A program made the position numbers and the translations under genes. Positions 2,027 to 45,077 of a stretch of 45,077 nt of DNA are shown in pieces. The stretch comes from Candidatus Poseidoniales archaeon. Lineage in GTDB: Archaea; Thermoplasmatota; Poseidoniia; Poseidoniales; Poseidoniaceae. Below the pieces are notes generated by a model. The model was given only the letters and a program-made list of their open reading frames with translations. It was not told where the DNA came from and did no database searches. The stretch is from positions 1 to 45,077 of the forward strand of contig QXXW01000016.1 of assembly GCA_009887255.1 (NCBI GenBank), read 5' to 3'. The stretch's first letter is position 1. The number at the start of each line of letters is the position of its first letter.

Positions 2027-2170
2027 ACTCCGACTCAGATGACGAGCCTTTCTTGGCCGCAGTTGGCCGAAGGCCTCCGAATCCAATCCGCCTAAACGAC
2101 TAAATTTCGCATTGTTTCGTTGATACTAAATGTGGCGAATGATATTCTTATCCAATCCACAAGGGCGCAG

Positions 2171-2178
2171 TATTATAT
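2171..2178 (+). promoter_or_regulatory. TATA-box-like element upstream of the beta-helix giant gene
   Basis: TATTATAT is the most AT-rich element of the 163-bp spacer 2027..2189. A start about 25 nt downstream would fit the ATG at 2211, which is preceded by GGTG. Confidence 0.25.
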
Positions 2179-2210
2179 TCTTGGTGAGTATGGAGAAAAC
2201 TGGTGCCTCA

Positions 2211-5200
2211 ATGCTGAATCGTCAGAAATCCAAATCCATCTCACTGGTTCTCCTGTACATGCTGTCCATTCTCTTGGGTCTCGCAGCATTGCCGACCGTT
2301 CAAGCCGTGAACGAAACAACACAAGGCACCGTAACCGGTGTCGAAACGTGGACGGGAACGATGAACCTCCAGGGTGACGTGGAAGTGGCTGAAGGTGCAA
2401 AACTCATCATCAATGCCGGAACCACCATCAACATCCCACCCGGGAAATACATTGATGTCCGTGGTGCCATTTGCATCGGAGACACCGCTTGCGGAGCAAG
2501 TGCTGGATCCGCTTCGAGTCAAGCCCGTTTCATCTGGTCAGATCCAACCGATACCACACGGTACGGGCGTTGCACCAACGATTCATTGGTCCAGGATCTT
2601 GACAACATTGACGCTGCGTGCGGATCAGGCATGGTTATTCGCAACACCATCGACCAAGCACAAACCTCAATCAAGTTTGCCCACTTTGAAGGAGCTTACG
2701 GTTACCCACTCTACATCCAAACAGACAGTGCTGGTTTCAAGTACGGTGTGTTGGTCTTTGATGGCTCCAGCACCACGGTTCAAGGTTTGACCTTCAACGA
2801 TGTCAACACCTCCAACGTGCTGCTCTACAACCTCGCATCGCCAACCATCAGCGATTCGTCGTTTGTGGTCGGCAACGATGCAAGTTTTGAATCGCCGGCC
2901 ATACAAGCCTACGGAGCAGGAGCCGGTATTTTCTCGTCGTTCCGAGTCTTGGATTCTGATTTCACAGGCAACGACGCCAGCTGCGATGACGGTGTGAACG
3001 TCATCGATGTTGTTGAATCCTACATCGACCTTTCGAGGTTGAACATTGACCAATCCTCTTTTGGTGTGATTCTCAAGAAAACATCAGGTTCCATCACCAA
3101 CTCCACGATCAACGTCGAATGCAGCGGCATCAACACCAACGGTTTCAAATCCACCGGATTAATTGAGCACACTCTCTATGTCAACGACAACGTCATCACG
3201 ACCACTGACCTTGCGGGTCTCACCGCTTACGACAATGCAAAAGTCGTTGCCCACAGAAACGAAATTTCGGGCGCAGCCTCCGGTTCGGGCGTAGGGATTC
3301 GGTCCTCTCAAGTTGAACTCGTGGACAACACGATTGGACCTGTTGAAGGGTACAACGGGCTGTGGATCTACGGCGCTTCCGATGTGACCGCCATTGGAAA
3401 CACGATTCAAGACACCGGTGCTGAACCTGTGTTGATGGGTGAATACCACATTGACGACCAAGGCTGGAGCGGCTTCGCACAATACTTGCTTCCGGCTCGT
3501 CTCTACCTTGACAACAACATCATCTCAAACGTCTCCGGAACCTGCACGGCCAACGTGTATGACGGTGAATTCGATTGTCCAGCGATCCACGTCTTCAGAA
3601 CTTCAGCCACCATCGTCAACAACACCATCAGCGGAAACACAGGGGACATCATCCGTGCTACTGGAGCCATCGTCAACGTCCAAGGCAACACGGGAGATTC
3701 ACTCGGCGGCTTTGCCGGCAACATCAGCGTGCACGACGACAACCAAAACACCCGTGTTGGTTCCATCGCTTACTTCTCCGGCAACACATGGACAGGTGTG
3801 TCCCAAGTGTACAACATCACCGAGTCCCGTGTGACGGTCCAATCGGAGCAAATCCCTTCCCCAGGCAACGGTGAACTCTATCCCGTCAATCTTCAGTGGC
3901 TCAGCAACGAATGCCCCTACGTGCAGAACGCGTGCATCAGCGTTCCACCCACCTCACTCATGCCCCCACGAGGGATGCCAATGGCACTCGAACTCGTGCA
4001 AAACGCCACGGTCTTCTCCTTTGCAGACCTCGCAAACTTCGATACCAGCATGATTCACGTACAGAATCAAAATTCAGCATGGGGTTCTCAAATTCAGGAA
4101 GGTGAACTCGTTCGCTATCAGGTGAAGGCGAAGAACTCCAACATGGCCGGCGCAACGGTTGTGATCCGTGATGCCACGGGTCTGCCACTGTACGAACTCG
4201 AGACCGACGCTTTTGGTTTCACACAACAAGTCTCGCTGCCATCTGACTTCATGCTGGACCACAACTGGAATCACGAAGTTGGTGAGCGATCTGTTGCAGT
4301 GCCAGGTTCCAATGACGGCACCGGTCAACCCATTGTGATGGACGAGGATTCCTGTGCAGACGGGATTGACAACGACGGAGACACGCTCGTTGACGGCGAC
4401 GATGCAGACTGCCTCAACGGCCGAGAACTCCCGTTCTACACCGTCGACGCCTACAAGTTCGGTAGCGGTAAAAAGAACCTCACGTTTGTTCTCTCCGGCG
4501 AAATTGATGAAGTCATCAACCTGGAAAACCTCAGGCCCAGTGTTTCTGTGGACCAAGCTGACGGTGCTTCCTTCGCCACCAACGTTGTCATCACCGGAGA
4601 TTCATACGACGGCATCAACTTGCCCACGACCATTGACTATGTGGAATACGAAAACCAATTTGGATTGATTCGTAGGGTCGAAGTTCAGCCACCCGGTTCA
4701 CAAGACTGGTATTCAGCAGTTGACACCTCTGGAGCCAACGGTATGCTGACAGCCACCAACCATCCGTTCAAGACTTGGTCGTTTACTTGGGATCTGTCGG
4801 CCCATCCTGAGGGAGAAGGCGATGTCACCTTCCGTATTCGCTCCTATGACGGTCTTGACTACTCTCCAGTTCAATCAAGGTTGTACAAACTCAACTTGGT
4901 CCCACCGACCTTGCTTGTTGATGTCCCAACCTCTGGAAGCACACACAGCACGGGAAGCATTCTGTTCCAAGGGACCGCCGCGGATCCCTATGTGGGCGTT
5001 TACCCGCAAGACATTAAGAACATCTGGTTCAAAATCACAGGGCCAGGTTACAACGCCACAGTACCTTCTCCAGGTTCAACAAGCTGGTCATTCAACTGGG
5101 ATGTCTCTTCCTTGCCAAGTGGTGAATACACTGTCGATGTATGGGCTGCAGACTCTGACTTCTGCATTGAATCGCCAGGCCCCGAGGGTGAACCTGGTTC

Positions 5201-6599
5201 ATGCACCATCGAACGACGGGTTCTGACCATTGACAATGAAAACACACCACCTATTCTTCAAGTTTCATGGGTCGGTGCCATGGACCAATCCAACGGTGGA
5301 ATAAATGGAGCCACCATCCGTGCTGCCGAAAACACCACGATTTCTGGTGTCGCACGCGATGTTGGAGGACAAGTGACTCGTGTGGAAATCGGCATCGTTG
5401 CCCTCGCCACCGGACTGGAACTGAACGACGGACCCTTGCCAGTGACTCAATTCAATCCGGACGGATCCTGGATGACGACATGGGACACTTCAGACCTGAT
5501 CGACCAGCAGGTCTACCAGCTCACCGTACGTGCTTACGACGGAAGGGATTACTCAGAGGCCACCGTATGGCGGTTGACCATCGAAAATCCATTGGATGCC
5601 GACAATGTGGGACCTATCTTTGACGATACTTCATGGCCGGGAACCATCACCATTTTCTGTGATTCTGAGTCAAACTCCTTCGACCGCTGCGGTCAAGGTG
5701 CTGTCATTGATCTCACCCAGTTCTTTTCGGATCCAGACGGATCAGGCGTCGTTGTTGATGACCTTGAGTTTTACGTATTTGACAGTGATAGTGCGGGCGA
5801 TGACAACTACGACCAATACATCCGTTTGACGGCGGATGGTGAAGCGATCTACAACCCAGTGGAAACCATTGCACAAACGACCAACAACATTCCGGATTGG
5901 AGCCTCGAAGGGGTGATGTTCTATGCCGTGGACACCCAAGAATCTCGCGACTACTCGTTGCAGGTGAACTTCCTGGTCCGTGCGGTGGCCTTCACCGTTG
6001 AACGAGTCGACAGTGGAGAAATCAAGTCCAATGACCCAGCTGAATTCCAAGGAACCGGCTTGCCGGGCAGCCAAGTCGTGATTCGCTTCGCAGACGGCAA
6101 CTCCAGACTCAACGACACGCGTGTCCTCTCCGACGGCACATGGTCCATGCAACTAACCAGTGGTCAATTGGGCGATGAAGGTCGTTCTGCGGTGATTTTC
6201 GAAATGGACGGTCAAATCTACCAGTTTGCAGGCCAAAACGAGCCCGGTGAATTCACCGTAGCCGTGGCTTCAGGCGACGGCGGAGGCTCAGGTGTTTTGA
6301 ACATCGTTTTGCTCGTGCTGGGCGTCCTCGTTCTTCTCGGGGCGGGAGCTTACTTCTTCATTGAGTTTGAAGACGTTGTCGACGAAGACGAGTTGACCGC
6401 TGATGACAGTCAGCCAGAGGAAGACCCCTACGCATGGGCCAAAGCCAAGCAAACACCTGAATTGCCTGCTGCATCACAAGTTGCTGCACCAGCCGCAGCT
6501 GCTGAACCTGCTGCACCTGCATCTCAACACCCAGGCTGGTTGTGGGACCAAGGTTCCAACCAGTGGGTGGCAGATCCTGACTACACTGGCGAACAGTGA
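2211..6599 (+). CDS. Giant surface protein: signal peptide, parallel beta-helix (PbH1-like) region, Cys/Asp metal-binding-like motif, three Ig-like modules, C-terminal TM and 78-aa cytoplasmic tail
   Basis: ORF track 2130..6599. The ATG at 2211 gives the signal peptide MLNRQKSKSISLVLLYMLSILLGLAALPTVQA and has GGTG 7 nt upstream; 2190 is an alternative. Beta-helix-type repeats are present (NNTISGNTGDIIRATGAIVNVQGNTG and others), as is CADGIDNDGDTLVDGDDADC. Three modules share W-x-[FT]-x-WD-x-S ... Y-x-[VL]-x-V-[RW]-A-x-D. The TM is GVLNIVLLVLGVLVLLGAGAYFFI. Confidence 0.8.
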   Translation: MLNRQKSKSISLVLLYMLSILLGLAALPTVQAVNETTQGTVTGVETWTGTMNLQGDVEVAEGAKLIINAGTTINIPPGKYIDVRGAICIGDTACGASAGSASSQARFIWSDPTDTTRYGRCTNDSLVQDLDNIDAACGSGMVIRNTIDQAQTSIKFAHFEGAYGYPLYIQTDSAGFKYGVLVFDGSSTTVQGLTFNDVNTSNVLLYNLASPTISDSSFVVGNDASFESPAIQAYGAGAGIFSSFRVLDSDFTGNDASCDDGVNVIDVVESYIDLSRLNIDQSSFGVILKKTSGSITNSTINVECSGINTNGFKSTGLIEHTLYVNDNVITTTDLAGLTAYDNAKVVAHRNEISGAASGSGVGIRSSQVELVDNTIGPVEGYNGLWIYGASDVTAIGNTIQDTGAEPVLMGEYHIDDQGWSGFAQYLLPARLYLDNNIISNVSGTCTANVYDGEFDCPAIHVFRTSATIVNNTISGNTGDIIRATGAIVNVQGNTGDSLGGFAGNISVHDDNQNTRVGSIAYFSGNTWTGVSQVYNITESRVTVQSEQIPSPGNGELYPVNLQWLSNECPYVQNACISVPPTSLMPPRGMPMALELVQNATVFSFADLANFDTSMIHVQNQNSAWGSQIQEGELVRYQVKAKNSNMAGATVVIRDATGLPLYELETDAFGFTQQVSLPSDFMLDHNWNHEVGERSVAVPGSNDGTGQPIVMDEDSCADGIDNDGDTLVDGDDADCLNGRELPFYTVDAYKFGSGKKNLTFVLSGEIDEVINLENLRPSVSVDQADGASFATNVVITGDSYDGINLPTTIDYVEYENQFGLIRRVEVQPPGSQDWYSAVDTSGANGMLTATNHPFKTWSFTWDLSAHPEGEGDVTFRIRSYDGLDYSPVQSRLYKLNLVPPTLLVDVPTSGSTHSTGSILFQGTAADPYVGVYPQDIKNIWFKITGPGYNATVPSPGSTSWSFNWDVSSLPSGEYTVDVWAADSDFCIESPGPEGEPGSCTIERRVLTIDNENTPPILQVSWVGAMDQSNGGINGATIRAAENTTISGVARDVGGQVTRVEIGIVALATGLELNDGPLPVTQFNPDGSWMTTWDTSDLIDQQVYQLTVRAYDGRDYSEATVWRLTIENPLDADNVGPIFDDTSWPGTITIFCDSESNSFDRCGQGAVIDLTQFFSDPDGSGVVVDDLEFYVFDSDSAGDDNYDQYIRLTADGEAIYNPVETIAQTTNNIPDWSLEGVMFYAVDTQESRDYSLQVNFLVRAVAFTVERVDSGEIKSNDPAEFQGTGLPGSQVVIRFADGNSRLNDTRVLSDGTWSMQLTSGQLGDEGRSAVIFEMDGQIYQFAGQNEPGEFTVAVASGDGGGSGVLNIVLLVLGVLVLLGAGAYFFIEFEDVVDEDELTADDSQPEEDPYAWAKAKQTPELPAASQVAAPAAAAEPAAPASQHPGWLWDQGSNQWVADPDYTGEQ

Positions 6600-6618: not shown

Positions 6619-9141
6619 ATGGCAGTTCAGCCAAAACCTGGTGTACAGGAACGCATCCTGTTGCACTTGTTGGATTATTCGGATTACAAGGACAGCATCG
6701 AGGTCCCGTTTGCTCTTTCGCAAATGGGGATTGCCAACGCTGTCGCCATAGCCCGGTCAAACGTACCACGAGCAATTGCTGGACTGAAAGATCAGGGGTC
6801 CTTGATTGAACGTCAAGCGCACGTCAAAGGCGTCTCTCGAAAACGAAAAGCCTACTTCTTGACCGATGGAGGCGTTGCTTTGGCCAACGAAACATGGCAA
6901 CGGCTTCGCTCGTTTCCACTTCGATGCATGTTGGACGACCAACTGGCAGAGAACACCACGCTGGGAAGTGCCAAATCCGTCTTGCCTTTTGAAATGCGCC
7001 CGGTTGACATCATCAGGTACATGGACGAACAAGGTATGCTGGATGTCCGCAACCTCAGTGAAGAATTGATTCAGAGAGACCTCTCCAAACATGTCGAAAA
7101 GCAGTTGGTTACATCGCTGGCAGATTTGCCTCGCCTTCGTCACTTCTACGGCCGCACATCTGAATTGGACAACATGGTCAATCTCTTGGACGCCCGCGCC
7201 ACCACATTGCTCGTGCCTGGTATCGCTGGTATCGGCAAGACCACAATGGCTTCGAAACTGATTGAACAATTCGTACACAGGCGCAATCTTCTGTACCACC
7301 GCTGTCAAGACTGGGAAGGCTCCAGGTCGTTCTTTGAATCCGTTGCTGATTGGTTCTCCAGCATGGGCGACTCGGACTTCGCTACCTATCTTGCAGCAAC
7401 CCCTGTTCCCAATCCAGCCGACGCTGCTCGGCTGATGGTCGATGCACTCACCGGAACACCTGCATTGATGGTGGTGGATGATTTCCATAAGGTTGCAGAT
7501 TTGGTCCTCCATCAAACATTCCAAGCCATGGCCTTGGCGTTGCTTGGCAGCGAAGAGAGCATTGGGTTGGTGATCTTTTCACGCTCCTTCAAACCCGTGG
7601 TCCCTGCGAAGGATGCTGAAGGGCGTATTGCAAGCTTGGTTCTCCCTCTGGACGGTTTGGACCCCGATTCCGGGCGAAAATTGCTCTCAAGTTTCGGTGA
7701 ATTGGCTGACGAACAATGGCTTCACATTCATGGTTTGTCTCGAGGCCACCCCTTGGTGCTTGAACTTATCAACCGTGGTGCATCTGCCGGTGCCTACCAC
7801 GAAACGCTGGAAAATTATGTCACCGTTGAGATTTTCTCCAAACTCACTGCCGAACAGAAACGCGTGCTCTCTGCACTGGCTGTTTTCCGAGAGCCAGTGG
7901 GTCTTGAGGCGTTGGCTCGTCAGGAACTCGATACGGATGTGTTGGATACTCTTGTGGAGTCAGGTCTTGCGCGTAGAGCAGACTCGGATGCCTACGACGT
8001 TCACGACTTGATTCGTGAATTCCTTTTACGCAGCATGGCCCCATCCTTGAAAATAGAATTTCACCAACGTTGCTCTGAATGGTACAAACACCATTCCGAG
8101 AATCAAGACCTTCTCATCGAACACATCTATCACTGCATTCAATCAGAACAACATGAAGAAGCCTCGGAACTGGTTGTCAAGGACGGCAGAACACTCGTTG
8201 CCGTGGGTCATTTGGAATTGCTGGGCTTGATCGAACAAATCGACATGTCCGAACTGGCCCTCGACACGGTTCTGAACCTTTCTCAATTGAAGGGCGAAAT
8301 GATGGCTTTGCTGGGTCGATTTGACGATGCAGAGCACGTTCTTCAAGGTGCTTTTGATCAAACCGATGACACGTCCCTCATCCTCCGTGCCCAATTGCTT
8401 TCTTCGATGGCTGATGTGAGCAGAAAGCAAGGCAACAGCGACCTGGCCTTGACTCGACACAAGCAGGCCTTGAAGCATTACGTCGAATTGAACGACGCTC
8501 GTTGGGCGTCACGGACATACAACAACATCGGGTACCTCCTTCGCCGGAAGAAGGAACGAGGCAAAGCCCTCGAGGCGTATGCGGAAGTTGAGGCGATACT
8601 CAACTCAAACCAAGATTCTATGTTGTTGCCAAGTCAAATCACCTTGGCTCGGGCCCTGATCGATTTGGACGAACTTGACCGAGCGAAGGTCCACGCCTTG
8701 ACAGCCTACGAACAGACCCAAGATTCCGACGAGCCTGGGCTTCATGCAAGAGCCCAATCTGTTCTGGGGCGTTACTATGCCCGAATGAACCAAGCCGAAC
8801 TTGCCATGTTCCACTACACGGCTGCCCTTGAGAGCATGAACGAAGCCGGCGACCTGCAATCCCTGGTTGAAGTAACCATGTTGCTGGGCGGTGTTCTCCA
8901 AGACGCTGGGAAAACAGAAGAAGCCCTCGACCACTATCAACAGGCTTTGGTGGTTGCAGAAGCCAACGACATGCGAATGCAAATCGGTGAGCTTCTCACC
9001 AGAATTGGGGGCACGTCTTCGGTTCGACAAGAGCGTATGGAATACCTTCAACGCGCACTGTCCGTTTTCAGGGAATTGGGAGCTCGCTCAAGAATGAAGG
9101 AAGTCCAAACCATGGTTCATCGGGCCGTCATGGGGCGATGA
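6619..9141 (+). CDS. STAND-class NTPase (AAA_16 / NB-ARC-like) with N-terminal winged helix-turn-helix and C-terminal TPR array; putative signal-sensing transcription regulator
   Basis: The wHTH-like segment is FALSQMGIANAVAIARSNVPRAIAGLKDQGSLIERQ. FYGRTSELDNMVNLLD precedes the Walker A LLVPGIAGIGKTTMASKL, and the Walker B is ALMVVDDFHKV. GLVIFSRSF and the GxP motif SRGHPLVLELI follow. The C-terminal ~300 aa contain TPR-like helical repeats (ASRTYNNIGYLLRRKKERGKALEAYAEV; EEALDHYQQALVVAEA). GAGGT lies 9 nt upstream of the ATG, and the gene starts only 19 nt after the upstream stop. Confidence 0.8.
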   Translation: MAVQPKPGVQERILLHLLDYSDYKDSIEVPFALSQMGIANAVAIARSNVPRAIAGLKDQGSLIERQAHVKGVSRKRKAYFLTDGGVALANETWQRLRSFPLRCMLDDQLAENTTLGSAKSVLPFEMRPVDIIRYMDEQGMLDVRNLSEELIQRDLSKHVEKQLVTSLADLPRLRHFYGRTSELDNMVNLLDARATTLLVPGIAGIGKTTMASKLIEQFVHRRNLLYHRCQDWEGSRSFFESVADWFSSMGDSDFATYLAATPVPNPADAARLMVDALTGTPALMVVDDFHKVADLVLHQTFQAMALALLGSEESIGLVIFSRSFKPVVPAKDAEGRIASLVLPLDGLDPDSGRKLLSSFGELADEQWLHIHGLSRGHPLVLELINRGASAGAYHETLENYVTVEIFSKLTAEQKRVLSALAVFREPVGLEALARQELDTDVLDTLVESGLARRADSDAYDVHDLIREFLLRSMAPSLKIEFHQRCSEWYKHHSENQDLLIEHIYHCIQSEQHEEASELVVKDGRTLVAVGHLELLGLIEQIDMSELALDTVLNLSQLKGEMMALLGRFDDAEHVLQGAFDQTDDTSLILRAQLLSSMADVSRKQGNSDLALTRHKQALKHYVELNDARWASRTYNNIGYLLRRKKERGKALEAYAEVEAILNSNQDSMLLPSQITLARALIDLDELDRAKVHALTAYEQTQDSDEPGLHARAQSVLGRYYARMNQAELAMFHYTAALESMNEAGDLQSLVEVTMLLGGVLQDAGKTEEALDHYQQALVVAEANDMRMQIGELLTRIGGTSSVRQERMEYLQRALSVFRELGARSRMKEVQTMVHRAVMGR

Positions 9142-9142
9142 G

Positions 9143-9619
9143 TCATTCCACGGTCGTTGGTCTGTCCAGTCCAATGCTGGTGACACCGTCTTCGTAAATT
9201 ACCCAAATTCTGTCAACGCCTGCCAGCGGAATCAGTCCCTCATGAACGCCCCGCCCAGTTCCTGAAATAGGCACTTCCATGTCAAGAGGGCCTCCTTCGT
9301 CCATGAGAATCACTTGAGTGTCTGTTAATTCAACCCAAAACAAGGATTCGTCGGCTTCAGTAGGTCGCCACATCACTTCTTCTGCATAACTCACGTTGCC
9401 AAGACGGCTGGCCTCATCGGCTCGTTCAACCGCTGCTGCGATGTCGTCCATGTTGGCCTGAATCGCCTCCTGATTCCATCGGAGTCTGGTGTTGGTTTCG
9501 ATGTCCCACGCCCAAACGCTGAACATTGTCATCAGCATCACGCCCAAAAGGAAGGTGAAAATGTAACCAAGTTCGGTGGCAGCTGCTTGTACATCTCCGG
9601 TCATTCGTCGCCGCCTCAT
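9143..9619 (-). CDS. Small type IV pilin-like protein (class III signal peptide-like N-terminus)
   Basis: The N-terminus MRRRRMTGDVQA|AATELGYIFTFLLGVMLMTMFSVWAW has a charged head followed by an approximately 25-residue hydrophobic helix. It is the last gene of a 4-gene operon and overlaps the upstream gene by 4 nt (9616..9619). Confidence 0.6.
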   Translation of the reverse strand: MRRRRMTGDVQAAATELGYIFTFLLGVMLMTMFSVWAWDIETNTRLRWNQEAIQANMDDIAAAVERADEASRLGNVSYAEEVMWRPTEADESLFWVELTDTQVILMDEGGPLDMEVPISGTGRGVHEGLIPLAGVDRIWVIYEDGVTSIGLDRPTTVE

Positions 9620-11847
9620 GAGAGATCCCCCCTGGCTGTGACGTCGAGCATGGAAAGCTGAAGGGTGAATTCAATGACTTCTCCGTTGGTATGCCAAACG
9701 GCTTCAGCCGTCCCGTAACTTGGATCTGGCACCCAGCCAACATAATCGGTGAGTAAATCCAACCTGCCCGGATAGATGGTCCAGTCTTCACTGGCATCAA
9801 GCCCAACAGCAGCGTGGTCGGCGATGGCGGTTCCATAGGGCGCACTCCAGCCCCGACGGATTTCAAAAGCAGGAGCCGAAGCCAAGGAACGTCGATTCAC
9901 CAATTCAATGTCCAAGTCCAGGGCCCCCCCGCCGCTGATGCTGTCACTGGTTGGATGGAGCGACGGCACGGTGGCTGCAAATCTTGGACCAGGACCGCCT
10001 CGGTCTGAGGGTGGTACGATGACGTAGGGGCGAAACTCGGGATGGTTTGTTAGCACAGCACCACCGCTGAAGGCCACTTCCATGCCTTCGACGGAGGAAC
10101 TGAACGTGTAGGCCAATCTCGACAGATGGAAGGCCCATACCGTGCCAACAACAGCATGTGTTTCCAAGTCCGCACCACCGATGACCTCGATTTCAACACT
10201 GGAGGGGTGTGCTCCGCGAATCCAGGCCTGCTCCACATCAACAGCACTCCGTCCACCCATGCGTTCCCATGGTAGGTCGGTGGTCAACCAACCACTTGCT
10301 TGGGTGCCCACCGTTGTGCATCGTTCCTCTCCGTCGTGGGGGAGTTGATGGACGCCGTGAGCTCCAGCGGCTCGGGTGAGCCGAAGTGGATGGCCATCAA
10401 TGACCTGCAAGCTGGTGTTGCCTTGAGCCAGTGCCAACGTACTGACTCGGTTGTCCCCCAGGAAGGATCCCGATGAATTGGTGGATCCGGTGGTGTTCCA
10501 TTCTGTGACATAGCCCACCAACTCCACCCGCAATTGTTCTGAAGTAGCATCGTCTTTGATGAACACAAATTCACCACCGGAAAGGGCACCGGTGTCATGC
10601 GCTGGTACAATGTGATGTCCAACAGCTGAGTTTGTGCTGCTCAAGTTGTCTTCTCCAGACCAGAGCATCATGAGCGCTCCGTCTGCGATCAACACAGGCG
10701 CCCCTTCGGTGTCTTCGGGGGGCCAAGAAACGTGCTCCAGGCCTCCAGGTTGAACAGAGATGCCACTTCCAGTCCATGTTGCTGTGACCACCTCCTCTCC
10801 TGGATTGGTCAGTCGCAAGGTCCCTGGCTGTGTTGGAGGGGTAAAGGTGGTCCCCGTGTATTGGCCCGTGCTGGAAGGCCATGGCGTGATACCAAGATCG
10901 GCACTGATGTTTCGAACAAACAACAGACGCGACGGAGCACTGGTGGTGATGTAAACCACAGAGGGATCTGTGATGTTTACAGGGGCCACAAACGAGGTTC
11001 CAGTTCGCATCGTGCCATCGGGCAGGGCGAAGCCGATTGATGTCTCATCCCCGATGTCAATCTGTATTTGGTTGGCCGTTTGGCTCAGCACTTCAACGGT
11101 GTGATGGCCTGCAGGCATGGGAACAGCCCAAGCGTGTCCTTTGTCGTCAACGGGTTGATGATCGTCCGGCAGCATAACAGTCGCTCCAGCTTCGCCTGTA
11201 AAGGCCAACACCGTGAGCTCATGGGTTGAATGGAGAACCAGGTCTTCGTTTGATGACAGCAAAATCTCGGTCAATTCGTCAACTCGCAATTCTCGTTCTT
11301 CAATCACATCAACGTCGTTGGACAGAATCAAGTCAACCGGGCCCAGGGGCATGGCAAGGCCGGGCAGGACCGATACAAGAACCGAGTCAAGGTTGTTGTC
11401 GAGCGTGTAGGCATACGGGCGATTGACACCTTGCCGCAAATCGGTGATGCAAACGGCTTCCACCGGCGATTCAGCATGGCGTATCTCGACTTCATCGTCA
11501 AAATCCAGCGCACCACGTGCTCTGAGTTCTTGACCCTCATGCCAGGTGGCGGAATACCACATTCCGCCTCTCAGGCTGTCCCAATCGAGGCTGCCATCAA
11601 CTGGAATCAACTCGGCAGAGGTGGAATCTCCGGGCATGCCTCGTTCGCTGAGGGCATTGGTTTGCGATGCCAACAGGGTCATCTGAGCCGACATGTCATG
11701 GCGCTCAACTGAACCTTCCATCTCTTCGATGACTGGCATCATTGACACCATCATCAGCCCAATGATGGACAAGACTCCACCGAACAGCAACACCGTGGCT
11801 ACCGCCGCCGATACCGCTTGCTCATCCCGGCGCATGGCGCCGTTCAT
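9616..11847 (-). CDS. Large (743 aa) pilin-like / pilus-associated surface protein with class III signal peptide-like N-terminus
   Basis: The N-terminus is MNGAMRRDEQA|VSAAVATVLLFGGVLSIIGLMMVSMMPVI. The remainder is beta-rich and Thr/Ser/Gly-rich with no further TM. There are 4-nt overlaps with both neighbours (11844..11847 and 9616..9619). Confidence 0.6.
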   Translation of the reverse strand: MNGAMRRDEQAVSAAVATVLLFGGVLSIIGLMMVSMMPVIEEMEGSVERHDMSAQMTLLASQTNALSERGMPGDSTSAELIPVDGSLDWDSLRGGMWYSATWHEGQELRARGALDFDDEVEIRHAESPVEAVCITDLRQGVNRPYAYTLDNNLDSVLVSVLPGLAMPLGPVDLILSNDVDVIEERELRVDELTEILLSSNEDLVLHSTHELTVLAFTGEAGATVMLPDDHQPVDDKGHAWAVPMPAGHHTVEVLSQTANQIQIDIGDETSIGFALPDGTMRTGTSFVAPVNITDPSVVYITTSAPSRLLFVRNISADLGITPWPSSTGQYTGTTFTPPTQPGTLRLTNPGEEVVTATWTGSGISVQPGGLEHVSWPPEDTEGAPVLIADGALMMLWSGEDNLSSTNSAVGHHIVPAHDTGALSGGEFVFIKDDATSEQLRVELVGYVTEWNTTGSTNSSGSFLGDNRVSTLALAQGNTSLQVIDGHPLRLTRAAGAHGVHQLPHDGEERCTTVGTQASGWLTTDLPWERMGGRSAVDVEQAWIRGAHPSSVEIEVIGGADLETHAVVGTVWAFHLSRLAYTFSSSVEGMEVAFSGGAVLTNHPEFRPYVIVPPSDRGGPGPRFAATVPSLHPTSDSISGGGALDLDIELVNRRSLASAPAFEIRRGWSAPYGTAIADHAAVGLDASEDWTIYPGRLDLLTDYVGWVPDPSYGTAEAVWHTNGEVIEFTLQLSMLDVTARGDLS

Positions 11848-12905
11848 CCGCTCACCTCAATGCGTTGCAGGTCCATTTCAAGGTAGAGAGGTAAGCCTTG
11901 GTTGCTGACGGTAATGCCGTCGGATCCGCTCGCCCTTTCATAGGGTGTAAATCCAATGTACGTGTCAAGAGTTCCGGCGGCCCGCTGAACGGTGTAGTCG
12001 GTCAACCACGTGTCGTGGTACTGCGGGGTGACCACGGAGTGAAGGGCATTGAACACGTTAAACCGCACGTTGTATGCTTCACCTGTAAACAGCATCATGG
12101 GCCCTTGGGAAACAAATTCAATGCCGATGTTGCTGCCGCTTCCCACGGACCCTTCCGTAACCGCATCGGTCAGCAGGATGGAGAGGCGCAATTCATCGTT
12201 GGCCATCCTGTCAAATTCAACCATGGGCATCTGCGTCACGTCCCACGCTCCGTTCGGAAATCGCTCTCCACGGGCGTTGTTCATCAGCACGATATCATGC
12301 TGGCCTTGACCCAACGAGGTTGTGACTTGGAGTCCAGAAAGTGAAATGTCAACCGAACGATGCAACTGTTCTCCGATTTCATCGTACACCGTGACGATCA
12401 TCCAGTGGCTGGAATAGGCATCGTGTTCTATGAGAATTTCCTGATGGTCTGCCTCCAATGTGGCGTTGAACATCCCGTTTGGGTGCTCAATCGTGAGGCT
12501 TCGTGCGGTTTCATTGGCAGAGAGGAGGCCGATGACCGTATCGTTGACATGCCTCACATTGATCCGTTCGGTCGAGGTCAAATCTGCAGCAATGGTCCAC
12601 GTTTCCACGTTTTGAACCGACAGGATTGATGTGGATTGAATCGCCAACGTGTTCCTGAATCCTGTTCCATCTGGAGCATTTCCTGCAACTTGCAAACGGT
12701 CCTCCAGTCGGTCGGCAATCCCCGTTGCGGAATTCCAGTTGGTGTTGTCTTCAAAATCTGAGAGGTACGGGTTGAGAAACACCCACACCCCCCCCATGAT
12801 GGTAATCACCATGGCAAGAAGCATCACCACGCCGAGGACTTCACTTACACCACGCTCATCAGCATCCAGCCGTTGACGAGCGGTTTGACGGCGCCGGCGC
12901 ATCAC
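11844..12905 (-). CDS. Archaeal type IV pilin-like protein (archaeal pilin N-terminal domain, formerly DUF1628)
   Basis: The N-terminus MMRRRRQTARQRLDADERG|VSEVLGVVMLLAMVITIMGGVWVF matches the characteristic (D/E)RGVSEV-hydrophobic signature of archaeal prepilins processed by PibD/FlaK-type peptidases. There is a 4-nt overlap with the upstream MBL gene (12902..12905). Confidence 0.7.
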   Translation of the reverse strand: MMRRRRQTARQRLDADERGVSEVLGVVMLLAMVITIMGGVWVFLNPYLSDFEDNTNWNSATGIADRLEDRLQVAGNAPDGTGFRNTLAIQSTSILSVQNVETWTIAADLTSTERINVRHVNDTVIGLLSANETARSLTIEHPNGMFNATLEADHQEILIEHDAYSSHWMIVTVYDEIGEQLHRSVDISLSGLQVTTSLGQGQHDIVLMNNARGERFPNGAWDVTQMPMVEFDRMANDELRLSILLTDAVTEGSVGSGSNIGIEFVSQGPMMLFTGEAYNVRFNVFNALHSVVTPQYHDTWLTDYTVQRAAGTLDTYIGFTPYERASGSDGITVSNQGLPLYLEMDLQRIEVSG

Positions 12906-13777
12906 GATTTGTCACACCTGTTGCTCTCATTTAGCCCTTGACCTTCATGCTCTGTTCGAACCGCCATTGCTTGTGGGGTTTGAATGCCATCGTGTTCGCC
13001 CCTGTCCGCTCCAATGTAGTGTGAAAATTCGGGTCCATCTTGGGTTGAGATGGTGAGGTCTCCCGAAAACACCTCCTCGATGTAGTACAGAACGGTGGAC
13101 TCAGCGATGTGGGGTTGGTTGTTTTTTTGACTCAAGTGGGTCAACACCACACTACGCGTGTCTTGGGTGCAAACTTCGGCCAAAAATTGGCCGGTTTGGT
13201 CGTTGGACAAGTGGCCTCCCGGACCGGATATTCGGTCCTTGAGTGACCGTGGGTACGGTCCGTTGAGCAATCGTCGTTCATCGTAATTCGCCTCAACGGA
13301 AATGTGTTCGCAGCCCCGAACATGACGAACGAGTTCGTCGGTGAACGTCCCGAGGTCGGTGATGATGGCGGCACGCTCACCATTGTGACTGGCCACGAAA
13401 GCCACGTTGTCGGAACCGTCATGGGGGACAGGAACCGGGAGGACGCTCAGGTCGTCACCGATGCGTATCAAATCCAGCGATTCAAAAAACGTGGTATGTT
13501 CTGGATTTAACCCCAGTTCCAGCGATGTTCTTTCGTTGGCGAGAACCTGAAGCTGCCATTTGTTCTGCACAACCGCAGCCCCCCCACCGTGGTCACCATG
13601 GTGGTGCGTAATCAACACGCAATCGATGTCTTCGGGAGAGAGGTTCATCAGTGCAAGTCGTTTTTTGAGTTGCACGCCACTGAAGCCCTGATCGATCAGC
13701 ACATTGACCTTCGGTGTGGAGAGCAGCGTGGCGTTGCCACGGCTTCCCGTCCCGAGGTGCGTGATGGTCATGGGCAT
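12902..13777 (-). CDS. MBL-fold metallo-hydrolase, YycJ/WalJ-PhnP-like (Lactamase_B_2 type), probably cytoplasmic
   Basis: The N-terminus LGTGSRGNATLL, the metal-binding motif ITHHHGDHGGG and the late motif GPGGHLSN ... THLSQKNN are typical of YycJ-type MBL hydrolases. ORF track 12902..13885. I prefer the ATG at 13777 (MPMTITHLGTGS) because the 36-aa extension has no counterpart in the fold, but 13885 remains possible. Confidence 0.8.
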   Translation of the reverse strand: MPMTITHLGTGSRGNATLLSTPKVNVLIDQGFSGVQLKKRLALMNLSPEDIDCVLITHHHGDHGGGAAVVQNKWQLQVLANERTSLELGLNPEHTTFFESLDLIRIGDDLSVLPVPVPHDGSDNVAFVASHNGERAAIITDLGTFTDELVRHVRGCEHISVEANYDERRLLNGPYPRSLKDRISGPGGHLSNDQTGQFLAEVCTQDTRSVVLTHLSQKNNQPHIAESTVLYYIEEVFSGDLTISTQDGPEFSHYIGADRGEHDGIQTPQAMAVRTEHEGQGLNESNRCDKS

Positions 13778-13927
13778 GCTTCTGTACCCAGCGCGGGAAC
13801 CACTTGAACACACCGCCCTGCTGGATGAATTAGCGATGATTTGAGGTCCATTTCCGTCAATTCGGTCAAAGGTGTGTATGAACATTGTTCCATCAGCCTC
13901 ATAAGCAAACTTTCCAAGAGAAAAAAG

Positions 13928-19712: not shown

Positions 19713-19782
19713 ACAGTGCTGATTCGTTTGACTGTGTCGGCGAACCGCATGGTTCAAAGTCTATGTTGGCCCTGTGTTGGTC

Positions 19783-22700
19783 ATGCAGGGTAGCGTACAG
19801 CATGCCAACTCGTCGCGAGGCGTTCTCTTCTTGCTCGTTGGCTTGATGTTCTTTGTGCCACTGACACCACTTGTGGATCACGTCGTTGAATCGGTTGAGG
19901 CTGCCGCCGGATCTCGCCACGTCTACGAATTCCATGACGGTTCGGTCGACTACATCGCCCTTTACCAAGGTGCAAATCCTGACGCAGGTGCCATGGTCTC
20001 CCTCCCGCGAGGCGCCGATGTCACTGACGTCAGTCTCACTCTCTCCGGTGCTTCGGCCACAGGATGGTCCCAGAGCGTTGCGGACGATCGAATTCATTGG
20101 GTGTCCGGTGAAGAGAGCGCTACGGACGACCGCAGCGATGATTTGACGCTGGGTCTCGACAACAGCATGGACCTCTTTCTCCCTCACGGTCAAGACGCTT
20201 ATGTTGACACCAATTCCGACGCCTGGCTGGACAACGGTTCCTACGCTCTTCGCCAACCTCACACCTCCAACGCTACCGAGGCCCTGTTTTCTCAACAACT
20301 CACGAAAACTTCACCCAGCTTCAGTGGTACCTCGCAAGGGGCTATGTTGAGCCACCATGACTGGTTGTTCCTTTCGACATGGACCTCTTCGAGTTTCACC
20401 AATGTCGTTCACCGCTTGTACCCAAACAACGCCACACGGGAGAGCATCATCACGCTTGACCAAGGAGATTGCACCCTCCCCCAGAAGCATCCATCCTCAT
20501 ACTCAGGCTATTACGGATTCCGGGATTGGACCGTGACCGACGACGAACGTTTGTTTGGCATCCTTTCTGGCTACAGGACGACCCAATCAACTGCCTCGGT
20601 GAATTATCATCGTGTGATGGAAATGGACATCTCAAGGGACGACATATGGACTTGCATCGATTCCTACGACGTGTCGCCATCGGTTGGTGAATACACTGGT
20701 ATTGCTTATGACCGCAACAGCAGTGAAGTCTGGATCGCTCACAACGCCATCAATCGCCTCTATTCCTATGATTTTGCCAGCGATGGAACGGGCAGTTACA
20801 CCCGGAGTTCAGAATTTTACACCTACCAATCCGCTCAAGGATCAACCTGGGACTGTGGAGGTACGGACGCCAACGGTGGTCGTCAAATGCTCCGTGGGTT
20901 GGAAGTGAACGGATCCACGTTTTACATGCGTTGTCAAAAGGACTACTATTACAACGACAGGGACACCCTTGAAGCGTGGTCTGTCTCAGGCACATCGCAA
21001 GCCCTCATCCCCGAGACCACCACACGTCAAATTTCCCGCTTGGGCCACGGCCTCCAATTCGATGGCGAGCGTTTCATCACGGTTGACAGCGGTTACAGCA
21101 CTTGGTCAAGCACCACGCTGTATTACCGAGAATTTGGGACCGGATGGTTGTACGAAACGACCCCCTCTCCAGGAACACATACGTGGTACGGAGAGGTGGT
21201 TCGCACCGCTGAGGACATCGTGGCCGCCAACGTTCAGACCTACTGGTCGGCCGCTTCCATTGGAGACAGGGTTGAATATTGGGTTTCTGCAGACAACGGG
21301 ACCCATTGGGAGCAAGTGACGTCGAACTCAACCATTCACTTTGATTTCCCCGGCAACGAACTGGTATGGAAGGCTCAACTCATCGGCTCAACAGCCGTGT
21401 CGTGGTGGGTCGACATTGAATACGCGTCGGATTACGTGTCTTCGGGTGACTGGACCTCAACCCCGCTCAACACGGGCACCAAGGTTGGCAAAGTACGACC
21501 CTCATGGACCGCCGATGTGCCAGCAGGTACCGGCGTTCAGGTGCTGGTCTCGAACGACAACGGCACATCGTGGTTGGAGGCAACCAACAATGCTGAGACC
21601 AGTTTCTCCGCAGAGGCAGCCGGCAACACCCTTCGTTATTCCATCCTTATGACCTCCACGGACAGCAGCATCACACCGAGCATCGATCGTTTCCTGTTGG
21701 AATACGAAGAAGGGTACCCGGACAGGCCAATGATTGACGTTGGCTCCGACGGTACATTCGACTGGGAATCGCTCATGTTCCTTAACGAATCCAGCGTTGT
21801 GGCTACAGACGACTCAGAGGTGGGTGTTGTGGTCCGACGGGCTCCAACCCTTGTGGATGCGTTCAATGACTTTGTTCCTGACAACGGTGACGGAATGGTG
21901 CACGTGCCGTTGTCCATTAAAGCCGCTACTTCAGGACGGATCAAGGTGTCCAACATCGACGTGACCTACGCCATGCAAACCCGTGCACTTGACGCCACCT
22001 TTGAGGGAAGTCGTGCCTCTCCTGATGGCATGTACCGCAATTTCATCACCCGTGTGGCTCCTGGTGATGACGTTGATTACGTTACCCAAGCCACGGTGTT
22101 CATTGACCACACCTACGGAGACAACCCGGGTTTCACATGGGAGCGCGGTGACAGTTGTACTTCGGCCAACGATGGTGGTGGAATCGTGCTCTTCGACACT
22201 GCGAATTGCACCTCCATGACCGACAGCAACGGCATTGTTTCCATTTGGATGCCAACCAAAGTTAACTGGAGTTGGAACGATCAACTGGATACAGAAGCGA
22301 TCATCAGCGTCCAAGACGACCTTGGCATGGCCGTGAACGCATGGAGCACCAGCGACATGGATCTGGTGATTGAAAACGACATCCAACTGGACGGTCTCCG
22401 GGTCTGGGAAGAAACCGGGCGTCAACTCTACCCCATGGATTGGGTCCGAGGTGGGTTTAACCTGAGTTTCAGCGGGAGAATGGTCTTCCAAGATTCACAA
22501 CTCATGCCTCCGTCAGGAACCTTTGACCTCCAAATTCTGGGTCAAAACGTGACCTTTGACGGTGATGCCATAGGCGAACCAGAATTGCTTTATCAAGAAG
22601 CAAATCCGGCGTTTGGAGATTACAACATCACCTTCATGTCACCCATTGAATCAACACCCGGTGGCATGGTGTTCTACGTGCAGGCGGTCAATCTGGAAAA

Positions 22701-42720: not shown

Positions 42721-45077
42721 TCAGAAATCTAAATCGTCGTCTTGCCAAAGTGGGGGTGTATTGGTGGTGGTTGTCCCCGGTTTGGTTTGGCTTGGCATGC
42801 TGGATGTGGGCGGTTCAGTTACCTCAACCGGTGGGGCAATGTCCAGCATTGGAGAGGCGATTTGACCAGCTTGAAGAGCGTTCAGGAGGTCATCAGCACG
42901 TTGCAATTCCCGTTCTTCCGTTCGTTTTTCAAGAACGAGTTGTGCGGCGTTGACGAGCTGAGGATTCACCGGCGTTTGTTGTACTGCGGCGTGGCCGTGT
43001 TGTTGACGAAACTGCCTCGCATAGTCCTCTTTGTGGATTGCATCTGGAGTGCTCTCAGGCTCAATTCCGGGTGGTGTGGCAGGCTCAGAGGGCCCTGAAT
43101 TGAATTTGGCCATCCAATCGTCAGCGGTTTCGGATGCACGTTGGTAAGGCATGAGAGTGTTTTCGGCCCTTCTGCGCTGACGAGCACGCACGGCCACCAC
43201 AACCAAAGCAAAGGAGAACGCACTCGCCAAGAGGACACCCGCCCATGCCTCAAGATAGGCCAACGACAAGGACACCCTTTCGGCCCAAACCGAGGCCTCA
43301 TCATCTTCACCAAGCGGTTGCCAAGGCGTCCCGAGATAATCCGCTTCTGTGGTGTGAACAAACATGTCTTCGGGCGTGTAGCGAGAACGCAAGGTGGTGT
43401 TGAGAAACATGGTGCCGTTCGAGGACTGATCTTGTGGCAATTCGGCCCAAGCACGCAAGGTGAAGGTGGAACCAATGGGTATTGTATTGATTTCCATCGA
43501 TCGTGGTTCAAGCACGCCATCTTCGTAAACGGCACCTTCTGGTGGGACGAGTCCCATCCCAACGGCATGACTTGATTGGAGTTGAACCATCAGCCCATCC
43601 GCAGCGTTCCCGTCGTTACGAACTTCAAAAGCCATGGAGAGCCGACCGTTTCGGTCAACCGTTTCATCCACGACGGTTAGATTCCAACGAATCAAAGGGC
43701 TCACGCGCAAATTCACTGATTGTGCGGCTACAACTCGACCGGTATCGTCCACAACCTCAAGGTCCATGGTTCCCCTGGTGAAGGCCAAGAGTTCTGGACG
43801 TGAAACAACGGTGACCACGGCCAATTCCTTTTGCTGACCTCTGAGGAAAAACGCACGGTCTGTTTCCCCGACTGAAGTGTTGAAGCCGTCGGTCACATCC
43901 GCAATGCGAACCGTGAAGGTGTTGAATGAATTCCCTGTGTTTGTTACCGTGGTCTCAACGGTGCAAGAGTTGATCTCGTTGAGATCGTCGCAACCCTGGT
44001 GTGCCACTGAGAACTCAGCCCCAGTGGTTCGCACGATGGTGGCCTGTACCGTTGTTTCTCGTTGCAACAACGAGGCACCCTGTGCAAACACCATCAGTTT
44101 GACACGAAGTTCACCTGTCAGTTCGTAGGGGGCTTGTATGCCTACTTCGACCACCCTGGATTCGTTGGGCGACAACGGGACGTCTTCCAAGCCACCAAAC
44201 AGGGCCACGGTCCATCCACTGACGTTGAATCTGTCTGAACGTGTCATCCCTGGCAACACTTGACCGTCCTCATCAACGGCGACCATGCTGATGTTGATGG
44301 TGTTGACCGTGTTGCCCACGTTTCGAACCGTTATCTGTGCCCGACCGTCCTGGGTTGGTGATAGGGTAAGGTTGGAATCGACGTGGTCGATGCTTACGTT
44401 TCGTTTTTCATTCATCAACAGATCAAACTGCCACGTGTGGGCAGCGAGGTCCAATCCTGAAACACCCGTGAGTGTGAACCTCGGCCCTGTTCCCGCCAGA
44501 GGCGCGCCGTCAAGAACTTCAGGAACGTCCACCCAAAGGTACACGTAGCCAGTCTGACCTTGCGTGAGGTTCAACACCGCTTGGCCCTGGGTGTTGCTGT
44601 CCATGTTCCAACCCCAGGACCATGACGAAGGCGAGGACAATGAAAACGTCACGTTGTCAACACGTTCGGCGTTGTTGGTCATGTTGACCGCTACGGAAGT
44701 TCTCACCGTTTCATCGACGATAAACTGAGAAATGCCATTCACACCCCAACTCAGGTTTGAGTAAGGTGCAATTCGCACACTCATGTTGACCGAGAGAACA
44801 GCATCGGTGTCAACATCTCCTGTGATGTGAAAAGTGATGTTGCTGCTCTGAAAAGCTGAGGCATTGGACGCCATCACTTCAAACGTGAATTGATGGAGAT
44901 GGTTGGCCGCTAAATCCGCGCTCGTTGGGAGACCAAGCACGGTCAAATCTGTATGATTTGAAACCACATCAATCGTTACGGTTTGGGTGACGCTGGCCGT
45001 GTTGTGAACGGTGACGTACGTGGTTACGGCCTCTCCGGGATGAACGATCACATTCTCTTCAGATACGGCTTCCAAGT
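42721..45077 (-). CDS. Large cell-surface protein (CARDB/NEW3-like repeats), C-terminal TM and 155-aa cytoplasmic tail; N-terminus outside the window
   Basis: The frame is open to the window edge and no signal peptide is seen. Repeated modules include VTTYVTVHNTASVTQTVTIDV, AQITVRNVGNTVNTINISM, TVETTVTNTGNSFNTFTVRI and LSMAFEVRNDGNAADGLMVQL. The TM WAGVLLASAFSFALVVVAV is followed by RARQRRR, and the tail ends PPLWQDDDLDF. Confidence 0.75.
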   Translation of the reverse strand, partial: LEAVSEENVIVHPGEAVTTYVTVHNTASVTQTVTIDVVSNHTDLTVLGLPTSADLAANHLHQFTFEVMASNASAFQSSNITFHITGDVDTDAVLSVNMSVRIAPYSNLSWGVNGISQFIVDETVRTSVAVNMTNNAERVDNVTFSLSSPSSWSWGWNMDSNTQGQAVLNLTQGQTGYVYLWVDVPEVLDGAPLAGTGPRFTLTGVSGLDLAAHTWQFDLLMNEKRNVSIDHVDSNLTLSPTQDGRAQITVRNVGNTVNTINISMVAVDEDGQVLPGMTRSDRFNVSGWTVALFGGLEDVPLSPNESRVVEVGIQAPYELTGELRVKLMVFAQGASLLQRETTVQATIVRTTGAEFSVAHQGCDDLNEINSCTVETTVTNTGNSFNTFTVRIADVTDGFNTSVGETDRAFFLRGQQKELAVVTVVSRPELLAFTRGTMDLEVVDDTGRVVAAQSVNLRVSPLIRWNLTVVDETVDRNGRLSMAFEVRNDGNAADGLMVQLQSSHAVGMGLVPPEGAVYEDGVLEPRSMEINTIPIGSTFTLRAWAELPQDQSSNGTMFLNTTLRSRYTPEDMFVHTTEADYLGTPWQPLGEDDEASVWAERVSLSLAYLEAWAGVLLASAFSFALVVVAVRARQRRRAENTLMPYQRASETADDWMAKFNSGPSEPATPPGIEPESTPDAIHKEDYARQFRQQHGHAAVQQTPVNPQLVNAAQLVLEKRTEERELQRADDLLNALQAGQIASPMLDIAPPVEVTEPPTSSMPSQTKPGTTTTNTPPLWQDDDLDF

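Follow-up and report, generated by a model that had tools for sequence, protein, structure and literature searches.

Positions 9,143 to 13,885 of contig QXXW01000016.1, a 45,077-nucleotide stretch of DNA from a Candidatus Poseidoniales archaeon (analysed at full length and referred to here as the window), carry four consecutive open reading frames (ORFs) on the minus strand, encoding a metallo-beta-lactamase-fold hydrolase (MBL) and, downstream of it, three proteins that we call P2, P3 and P4. As far as their sequences and the structural models show, these three are type IV pilin-like proteins with class III signal peptides. The best explanation of the locus, which we hold with moderate confidence, is that they are a prepilin-type trio that would assemble into a hetero-oligomer and be expressed as a unit of its own, with the MBL as a neighbour. 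Within the archaeal pilin-like class, the trio is a member that has not been described before and is specific to the order; it is not a new kind of system and most probably not an MBL-led operon. The sequence of the window is archaeal, and its nearest relatives are metagenome-assembled genomes (MAGs) of Candidatus Poseidoniales. The following features, all on the minus strand, are at issue:

12902-13885 (minus strand): ORF of the MBL, open up to 13885
12902-13771 (minus strand): probable extent of the MBL-fold metallo-hydrolase, of the Lactamase_B_2 family, PhnP/YycJ-like, predicted to be soluble; conserved upstream neighbour of the trio
12928-12943 (minus strand): conserved 16-nucleotide motif GGTCAAGGGCTAAATG inside the 3' end of the MBL gene; candidate internal promoter of the trio
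11844-12905 (minus strand): P2, 353 amino acids, pilin-like, with a DUF7289/Pilin_N-type N-terminus and a beta-sandwich ectodomain
12849-12905 (minus strand): leader peptide of P2, MMRRRRQTARQRLDADERG, with a predicted prepilin-peptidase site between G19 and V20
12681-12848 (minus strand): N-terminal alpha-helix of P2, residues 20-75, its hydrophobic first half being the best-conserved part of P2
9616-11847 (minus strand): P3, 743 amino acids, pilin-like, with a large beta-rich ectodomain and a highly conserved C-terminus of about 170 amino acids
11815-11847 (minus strand): leader of P3, MNGAMRRDEQA, with a predicted cleavage site between A11 and V12
9143-9619 (minus strand): P4, 158 amino acids, pilin-sized, with a class III-like N-terminus
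9584-9619 (minus strand): leader of P4, MRRRRMTGDVQA, with predicted cleavage after A12 or A13

The stop codon of the MBL (TGA, 12904-12902) overlaps the start of P2, which is either the GTG at 12905 (GTGA) or the ATG at 12902 (TGATG); P2 and P3 share an ATGA at 11847-11844, and P3 and P4 share another at 9619-9616. Direct reading of the DNA thus confirmed the four ORFs, the overlaps, the quoted motifs and the three N-termini that had been described in an earlier, sequence-only reading of the window.

Alignments of leaders and junctions from 100-140 distinct homologues each of P2, P3 and P4 show the class III pattern in all three families, namely a variable basic leader, Gly or Ala at position -1 and about 20 conserved hydrophobic residues. 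Among 28 aligned P2 homologues the leader varies in both length and sequence, while the Gly or Ala at -1 and the residues VSEVLGV from +1 onwards are invariant ([GA]/VSEVLGV, where the slash marks the predicted cut). Similarly, VSAAVATVLLFGGVLSII is invariant behind the variable leader of P3, giving the junction pattern [AGS]/VSAAVATVLLFGG, and D-x-x-[AG]/A[AS]TELGY[IV]FTFLLG is conserved in 13 diverse homologues of P4. The N-terminus of P4 can be aligned with that of P2 using hhalign, and the N-termini of all three proteins resemble one another weakly in profile-profile comparison. In each protein the hydrophobic helix is the best-conserved segment: its weighted column conservation is 0.76 in P2 (against 0.32-0.62 in the ectodomain), 0.81 in P3 and 0.82 in P4, with most of the ectodomains at 0.3-0.6. 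Pilins typically show such a helix-peaked profile, which is seldom seen in plain signal anchors. A Tat signal was also considered and was rejected, as the RR pairs found in the window leaders are not kept in the homologues.

Profile searches place P2 and P3 close to known pilin-like families. P2 of the window matches the Pfam family DUF7289 just above threshold (27.2 bits, cut-off 27), and the match recurs in all 20 members of the P2 family that were analysed (best E-value 8e-10), 15 of which also match Pilin_N (PF07790; best E=3.4e-6); only the first 70 or so of the 238 DUF7289 profile positions are covered. For P3, the window protein remains below the DUF7289 cut-off (22.7 bits against 27), while the N-terminus matches in 19 of 19 family members (best E=1.6e-7). 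The relatives of P4 give weak DUF7266 matches in 4 of 13 members, and its window copy has no Pfam match and none to Pilin_N or TIGR02537. NCBIfam holds no equivalog for the MBL, P2, P3 or P4.

The AlphaFold2 model of P2, built from the 28-sequence alignment (predicted local distance difference test, pLDDT, 78), shows a 59-residue N-terminal helix (residues 17-75) followed by an all-beta part with Ig-like beta-sandwich domains, which is the arrangement of helix and beta-sandwich that the sequence-only reading had proposed to look for. When the P2 profile was searched against the PDB, the two best pilin matches were the haloarchaeal type IV pilins 8GI2 (Natrinema PilA2) and 9MYG, both aligned exactly at the P2 junction; their E-values of 0.1-0.6 are non-significant because the matched stretch is short. 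The same searches with P3 and P4 returned nothing meaningful. The model of P3 contains an N-terminal helix at low confidence and confident beta-sandwich/jelly-roll domains between residues 140 and 530, with the C-terminal 170 or so residues left unmodelled. This C-terminus (approximately residues 567-743; window 9616-10150) is as conserved as the N-terminal helix and contains many invariant Gly, Pro and Trp residues, yet its pLDDT lies below 35 and it has no match in Pfam or the PDB; it may be a partner-dependent domain. In Foldseek searches the two models matched only generic Ig/FN3 and jelly-roll domains at low template-modelling scores (Ig/FN3-like folds in the case of P2), so that neither pointed to a specific adhesin or enzyme fold. 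It is the variable leader, the invariant junction and the conserved helix, in combination with the DUF7289 and Pilin_N matches and the fold of P2, that lead us to read the trio as pilin-like. The earlier view that all three are pilin-like and that the first has a textbook archaeal prepilin N-terminus is upheld by the Pfam matches, the alignments and the P2 model.

The P2 family has few members: 87 matches were obtained when 1.84 billion cluster representatives were searched exhaustively, and those members for which a source organism is given all come from Poseidoniales or from MAGs of unresolved Euryarchaeota, Methanobacteriota or Thermoplasmatota. A single DUF7289 relative (P0443) was found outside the family, on a metagenome contig of 6.5 kilobases (kb) that carries no ATPase and has no MBL next to the gene. 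As a side observation, one 387-residue P2 homologue (P0096) has a precomputed Secretin match (PF00263) besides DUF7289, probably an artefact of annotation or gene calling.

About 170 loci of roughly 21 kb were compared around P2 homologues ranging from 99% down to about 27% identity to P2 of the window. Judged by the names of their sources, these loci span both families of the order, the Poseidoniaceae (Marine Group IIa, MGIIa) and the Thalassarchaeaceae (MGIIb). P3 and P4 follow P2 in this order in all 133 loci with enough sequence. Every sampled locus retains the overlap between P2 and P3 (-4 or -1), and in 91 of about 136 loci the first in-frame start of P4 overlaps the P3 stop by 4 nucleotides (nt).

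The junction between the MBL and P2 is different. Here the gap between the MBL stop and the first start that P2 could use runs from -4 to +330 nt. In most loci the two genes are 8-330 nt apart, typically 8-60 nt in loci of the MGIIa type and often around 200 nt in those of the MGIIb type. The overlap seen in the window is limited to its own lineage and a few others, in which it arises from a lineage-specific C-terminal extension of the MBL. Coupling of all four genes through overlaps at three junctions is thus not conserved among the relatives, where the P2-P3 and P3-P4 junctions are conserved and the MBL-P2 junction is variable. The gene itself is a steady neighbour, lying directly upstream of P2 on the same strand in 153 of 155 loci; the two exceptions (L127 and L130, of one MGIIb lineage) have no MBL upstream of P2 and nevertheless keep the trio. 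The arrangement of an MBL gene and three pilin-like genes therefore holds across relatives as adjacency, but not as overlap and not without exception.

The sequence between the two genes points in the same direction. The motif GGTSAANNNCTAAATG is found exactly once per locus, just upstream of P2, in 123 of 172 loci and in any reading frame, and is retained in the two loci without the MBL; the window copy of the 16-nt motif is unique (0.09 matches expected). MGIIb (Thalassarchaeaceae)-type loci carry a related element, GCGAAsCCATAAGAAC, in its place. In the window, a TATA-like CTAAAT lies about 25-29 nt before the P2 start, and across loci the most frequent distance from the beginning of the TATA-like core to an in-frame GTG or ATG is 28-29 nt. 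In archaea, the centre of the TATA box lies about 26 nt upstream of the transcription start. This spacing suggests that the trio has a promoter of its own, with a BRE (transcription factor B recognition element) and a TATA box, and that P2, P3 and P4 are translated from a leaderless mRNA. TATA-like elements of the same kind also precede two neighbouring genes. The claim that the MBL leads the operon and is made in fixed proportion to the pilins is probably not correct, given the 8-330 nt spacers, the hairpins (described below) and TATA-like motif in relatives, and the two loci that lack the MBL.

Two sets of observations on this intergenic region may be added. GC-rich hairpins lie between the MBL stop and the motif in L051, L074, L086, L092-L116, L126, L143, L154, L155 and L161; their sequences differ by clade (for example CACCCCCCTATGGGGGGGTG, ATCGCCTACGGCGAT and GAGCCCTGTAAGGGCTC), and they might be terminator, processing or stability elements. 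No such hairpin occurs in the window itself. As for the two loci in which the MBL is replaced, L127 has a low-GC stretch (35-40%) with a hydrophobic 160-residue ORF and a 60-residue fragment of a class II aminoacyl-tRNA synthetase, whereas the ORF upstream of P2 in L130 is P-loop kinase-like; L125 is identical to L127 over the 288 nt that it has upstream of P2. Both the L127 and the L130 contig break off at about 1 kb from P2 on its upstream side, so this region may be variable or repeated.

The MBL itself is a clear member of Lactamase_B_2 (PF12706; 60.6 bits, cut-off 27; E=2e-16). It carries the motifs HHHGDH (13589-13606), GHLSN (13202-13216) and THLSQKNN (13118-13141), and 16-25 homologues keep all the metal ligands (HxHxDH and the downstream H, D and H) without variation. 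As MBL homologues are mostly 266-292 residues long and begin with M-x-x-ITHLGxGS, the true start is probably M37 or M39 (13771 or 13765) and not 13885. With a maximum hydropathy (KD19) of 0.85, no transmembrane segment and no signal peptide, the single-domain protein of about 270-290 residues is, judged by its sequence, soluble. It can be aligned with E. coli PhnP over its full length by hhalign, although the relationship is distant (74% probability, 24% identity). Among the best 25 of 55 matching NCBIfam families none comes near its curated cut-off, and no phn gene is present in the window, so that neither the equivalog model nor the C-P lyase context that would mark a PhnP ortholog is found. 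Sequence and profile searches of the PDB matched only the generic MBL motif at the N-terminus and brought up no closely related solved structure. Sources name the homologues 'phosphoribosyl 1,2-cyclic phosphodiesterase' and in one case 'YycJ', and the motifs GGHLSN and HLSxxNN are ones that we take to be YycJ-like. In its Lactamase_B_2 domain, complete HxHxDH/H/D/H metal site, length of about 270 residues and predicted solubility the protein resembles PhnP, YycJ/WalJ and Apyc1. These results agree with the previous description of a soluble Lactamase_B_2 enzyme of the PhnP/YycJ kind.

One reading of the four genes joins the MBL and the three pilins into a single surface filament that handles nucleic acids, by analogy with pseudopilins acting together with the MBL domain of ComEC. 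The adjacency and shared direction of the genes in 153 of 155 loci and their overlap in the window are in keeping with it, as is the membership of nucleases and phosphodiesterases in Lactamase_B_2. However, the MBL domain of a ComEC-type system is fused to a polytopic channel, membrane-tethered and placed outside the cytoplasm, while the MBL studied here is predicted to be soluble and lacks a signal peptide and transmembrane segment, and no competence channel or DNA-binding domain was detected by Pfam in the window, so that the analogy is not supported. In addition, the coupling is not conserved, hairpins and a promoter-like motif separate the MBL from P2 in relatives, the gene is replaced in L127 and L130, and the DUF7289 relative outside the P2 family has no MBL neighbour. 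The MBL also evolves much more slowly than the pilin-like proteins (51-58% against 31-44% identity between the two families), as expected of a cytoplasmic enzyme. Nothing supports a DNA-handling filament, and we consider it extremely improbable.

A defence function was examined as well. An AVAST type 1 system, in which the Avs1a MBL acts with a STAND protein, was rejected: the PADLOC Avs1a model scores 14.6 bits and covers the N-terminal motif only, the STAND protein encoded next to P4 has no Avs match, and the locus is fixed across the order and not patchy. PADLOC gave no defence assignment for the MBL or for the STAND protein. A 123-residue member of the MBL cluster (P0515), named 'D-aminoacyl-tRNA deacylase', is probably an artefact of annotation or gene calling.

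Several observations weigh against a pilin-like trio with its own promoter. The window proteins fall below the curated cut-offs of Pilin_N and TIGR02537 (for P2, 19.5 bits against 25.2, with E=1.9e-3, and 17 bits against 20, respectively), the -2 residue of P2 is not charged in all homologues, P3 (743 residues) and P2 (353 residues) are large for pilins, and the P3 model is poor at both ends. Pfam detects no secretion ATPase, platform protein or A24 peptidase among the other large ORFs of the 45-kb window, in agreement with what had been noted before, and no assembly or peptidase genes occur in the roughly 21-kb loci either. The trio is present in both families and the Fla operon is reported in only a minority of MGIIb, so that any partner machinery there is hypothetical. 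With respect to expression, the motif could alternatively be a ribosome-binding site followed by an ATG, as in gene calls of 361 residues for P2; of 102 distinct sequences, 85 have this ATG in the P2 frame and 17, the window among them, have it out of frame. Finally, given the adjacency of the MBL in all but two loci, it may be functionally tied to the trio.

Much of this evidence would also fit a trio of unprocessed type II signal-anchor proteins that belong to a cell-envelope complex and have no relation to type IV filament machinery, namely the lack of assembly and peptidase genes in every locus, the presence of the trio in Thalassarchaeaceae, which are mostly reported without Fla genes, the scores below the Pilin_N and TIGR02537 cut-offs and the large ectodomains. 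A conserved Gly or Ala at -1 following an acidic or basic residue, together with strict conservation from +1 to +10, would not be expected of such anchors. The consistent DUF7289 and Pilin_N matches, and pilins as the best PDB matches, also speak against this reading. We regard the signal-anchor alternative as unlikely.

The distance from assembly genes, which the sequence-only reading had found odd, is common for archaeal pilins. Most archaea encode pilin genes outside the assembly operons (PMC4858521), and the six adhesion pilin genes of Haloferax are not co-regulated with pilB and pilC (PMC4371748). Proteins with class III signal peptides moreover occur in many genomes for which no locus of a type IV filament was detected (bioRxiv 10.64898/2026.04.22.720090). 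An MBL is mentioned neither in this preprint nor in the archaeal pilus survey (PMC4858521), and a literature search gave nothing relevant on Poseidoniales pilins, DUF7289, DUF7266 or FlaK in MGII.

Another reading is that the three proteins join the Fla-type, archaellum-like filament of MGII as accessory or minor subunits. Some sources do name P2 homologues 'flagellin-like' or 'FlaG/FlaF family', and according to the literature FlaB/G/H/I/J genes are present in all MGIIa genomes. They are reported in only a minority of MGIIb, however, and conservation of the trio is just as high in Thalassarchaeaceae, whose MGIIb clades are mostly described as lacking the Fla operon. No Pfam match to archaellin or FlaF/FlaG families was obtained, and the trio is located outside the Fla operon. 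A role as Fla subunits is therefore very unlikely in our estimation.

Amongst characterised proteins, the haloarchaeal PilA pilins offer the closest junction. The predicted PibD sites of H. volcanii PilA1-6 read 'DA/VS' and 'RA/VS', the latter in PilA4-6 (PMC4371748), and P2 has the same R/D-A/V-S type, sharing the 'RA/VS' junction of PilA4-6. Like the trio, the PilA proteins of H. volcanii and Natrinema (PilA2, 8GI2) have a short charged leader, and their genes lie away from pilB and pilC. The hydrophobic N-terminus of Natrinema PilA2 is similar to that of P2 and likewise conserved (ERAVSPVIGVILMVAITV against DERAVSEVLGVVMLLAMVI). The similarity is limited to about 30 N-terminal residues, with E-values that are not significant, and haloarchaeal PilA proteins are major subunits of about 150 residues, whereas P2 and P3 have 353 and 743 residues and multi-domain beta ectodomains. 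The closest described type is arCOG02911, a predicted euryarchaeal minor pilin that is FlaFind-positive, 250-550 residues long, all-beta and Ig-like, and prone to duplication (PMC4858521). It has been described inside ATPase/TadC loci, in which the trio is not found. That DUF7289 and arCOG02911 are the same family is a conjecture of ours.

Sets of several unequal-sized pilin-like proteins encoded together, as here, are known from Methanococcus maripaludis in the form of EpdA/B/C. In bacteria, GspH-I-J-K or TadE/F/G are minor pilins of fixed ratio whose N-terminal helices join them into a priming or tip complex. All of these sets are encoded in or near loci with an ATPase and a platform protein, unlike the trio, and no sequence relationship between them and the trio was detected. 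The substrates of EppA furthermore have Gln at +1 (PMC4371748), which the trio lacks. The 'bindosome' substrate-binding proteins of Sulfolobales and other archaea share with the trio the class III signal peptides and a gene location away from the filament machinery, but have solute-binding domains and ABC transporter neighbours, neither of which is found for P2-P4.

Taking the trio as pilin-like, we propose the following course of events. P2, P3 and P4 would be made in fixed ratio from their own, probably leaderless, tricistronic mRNA, and the precursors would be inserted into the membrane. A prepilin peptidase of the A24 family (PibD/FlaK type), encoded elsewhere, may then trim the basic leader between Gly or Ala and the following Val or Ala, which would leave the conserved hydrophobic helix at the N-terminus of each mature protein. 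The three helices are predicted to pack into a pilin-like hetero-oligomer, probably of 1:1:1 composition because the trio genes are translationally coupled everywhere. Such a complex could belong to a type IV filament, being of the minor-pilin or tip type, or could itself be a short pseudopilus anchored in the membrane, and would display the beta-sandwich ectodomains, with the large P3 as the likely binding part. The MBL would act as a soluble cytoplasmic enzyme, either a PhnP/YycJ-like phosphodiesterase or of the nuclease type, and would have stayed next to the trio over a long time without being part of its structure. As an alternative to the DNA-handling filament, the sequence-only reading had put forward a pilin-like surface complex with machinery encoded elsewhere, and it is this alternative that the evidence favours.

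The trio is embedded in a larger block of conserved genes, of which the following lie in the window on the plus strand:

2130-6599 (plus strand): giant secreted protein G1489, 1489 amino acids, with Big_7 and, in homologues, Beta_helix; part of the conserved block
6619-9141 (plus strand): HTH-STAND NTPase-TPR regulator-like gene (Pfam AAA_16, nSTAND, TPR_12 and HTH); convergent with P4
13959-19712 (plus strand): giant secreted protein G1917, 1917 amino acids, with TSP3-type Ca-binding repeats; divergent from the MBL; part of the conserved block
19774-25203 (plus strand): second giant secreted protein, G1809, 1809 amino acids; part of the conserved block

The order S8 protease, G1489, STAND, P4-P3-P2, MBL, G1917 and G1809 (about 1800 residues) is kept from 99% down to about 29% P2 identity, over at least 21 kb in relatives and about 25 kb in the window (710-25203), and the block is probably a core cell-surface gene island of Poseidoniales. 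The linkage of the MBL to the trio is thus real, yet no more specific than that of the other genes, because every one of them is equally linked. The HTH-STAND-TPR gene is convergent on P4 in 122 of 122 loci. In the window its stop codon (TGA, 9139-9141) is separated from that of P4 (9143-9145, minus strand) by 1 base, so that the two transcripts must overlap or end inside each other.

The giant proteins have Sec-type signals, no membrane anchor of their own and no C-terminal hydrophobic segment, and contain Big, beta-helix and TSP3-type repeats. Widespread 'thrombospondin' genes have been reported in Poseidoniales, and these probably include the giant TSP3-repeat proteins. The trio might accordingly serve as a dedicated anchor or export pseudopilus for its giant neighbours. 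The preserved order of the whole block, the absence of C-terminal hydrophobic segments in the giant proteins and the conserved P3 C-terminus, which AlphaFold2 fails to model by itself and which would fit a partner-dependent interface, are consistent with this possibility. Its basis is nevertheless the gene neighbourhood, which may simply reflect conserved gene order in Poseidoniales, and no archaeal precedent is known. We consider a dedicated role of this kind distinctly unlikely.

Some further features of the block deserve mention. The proteins of 1489, 1809 and 784 residues end in a Pro/Ala-rich linker and a short Trp-rich tail (HPGWLWDQGSNQWVADPDY, LPDGWTEQQWASYGWQYIDA and PPLWQDDDLDF; window 6500-6599, 25100-25203 and 42721-42860), which may be a shared sorting or anchoring signal. 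The N-terminus of G1809 (19774-19900) has R-[GA] followed by a hydrophobic stretch in all homologues (SSRG/VLFLLVGLMFF) and is superficially class III-like, but the A-x-A-type site (EAAAG) further downstream points rather to an ordinary Sec signal. The label 'Verrucomicrobiales bacterium' is attached to a 72-kb contig (NZEQ01000036.1, locus L028) on which the complete Poseidoniales block is found at 72-76% protein identity; almost certainly this is a mis-binned archaeal contig. A metatranscriptome paper (PMC9723583) contains no mention of the trio or MBL genes.

No member of the Poseidoniales (Marine Group II, MGII), the most abundant archaea in surface ocean waters, has ever been brought into culture, and the cell surface and particle attachment of the group are known from gene lists alone. 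With the trio read as pilin-like, several hundred protein clusters that are mostly unnamed or called 'hypothetical' or 'flagellin-like' gain an annotation as pilin-like proteins with class III signal peptides, and an order-wide block of conserved surface genes is defined, together with a candidate promoter element. The tempting but unsupported link between the MBL and a DNA-handling filament is removed, and the question is raised of what processes and assembles the trio in those MGIIb clades that are reported without archaellum genes. As the trio is found throughout the order, including Thalassarchaeaceae that are mostly reported without archaellum genes, it could even be a filament-derived surface module that works without Fla-type machinery, a short pseudopilus that anchors or exports giant TSP3-repeat adhesins. 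We give this last step little credence; if true, archaea would be using pilin-like proteins in a new way, and MGII would have its first defined surface apparatus.

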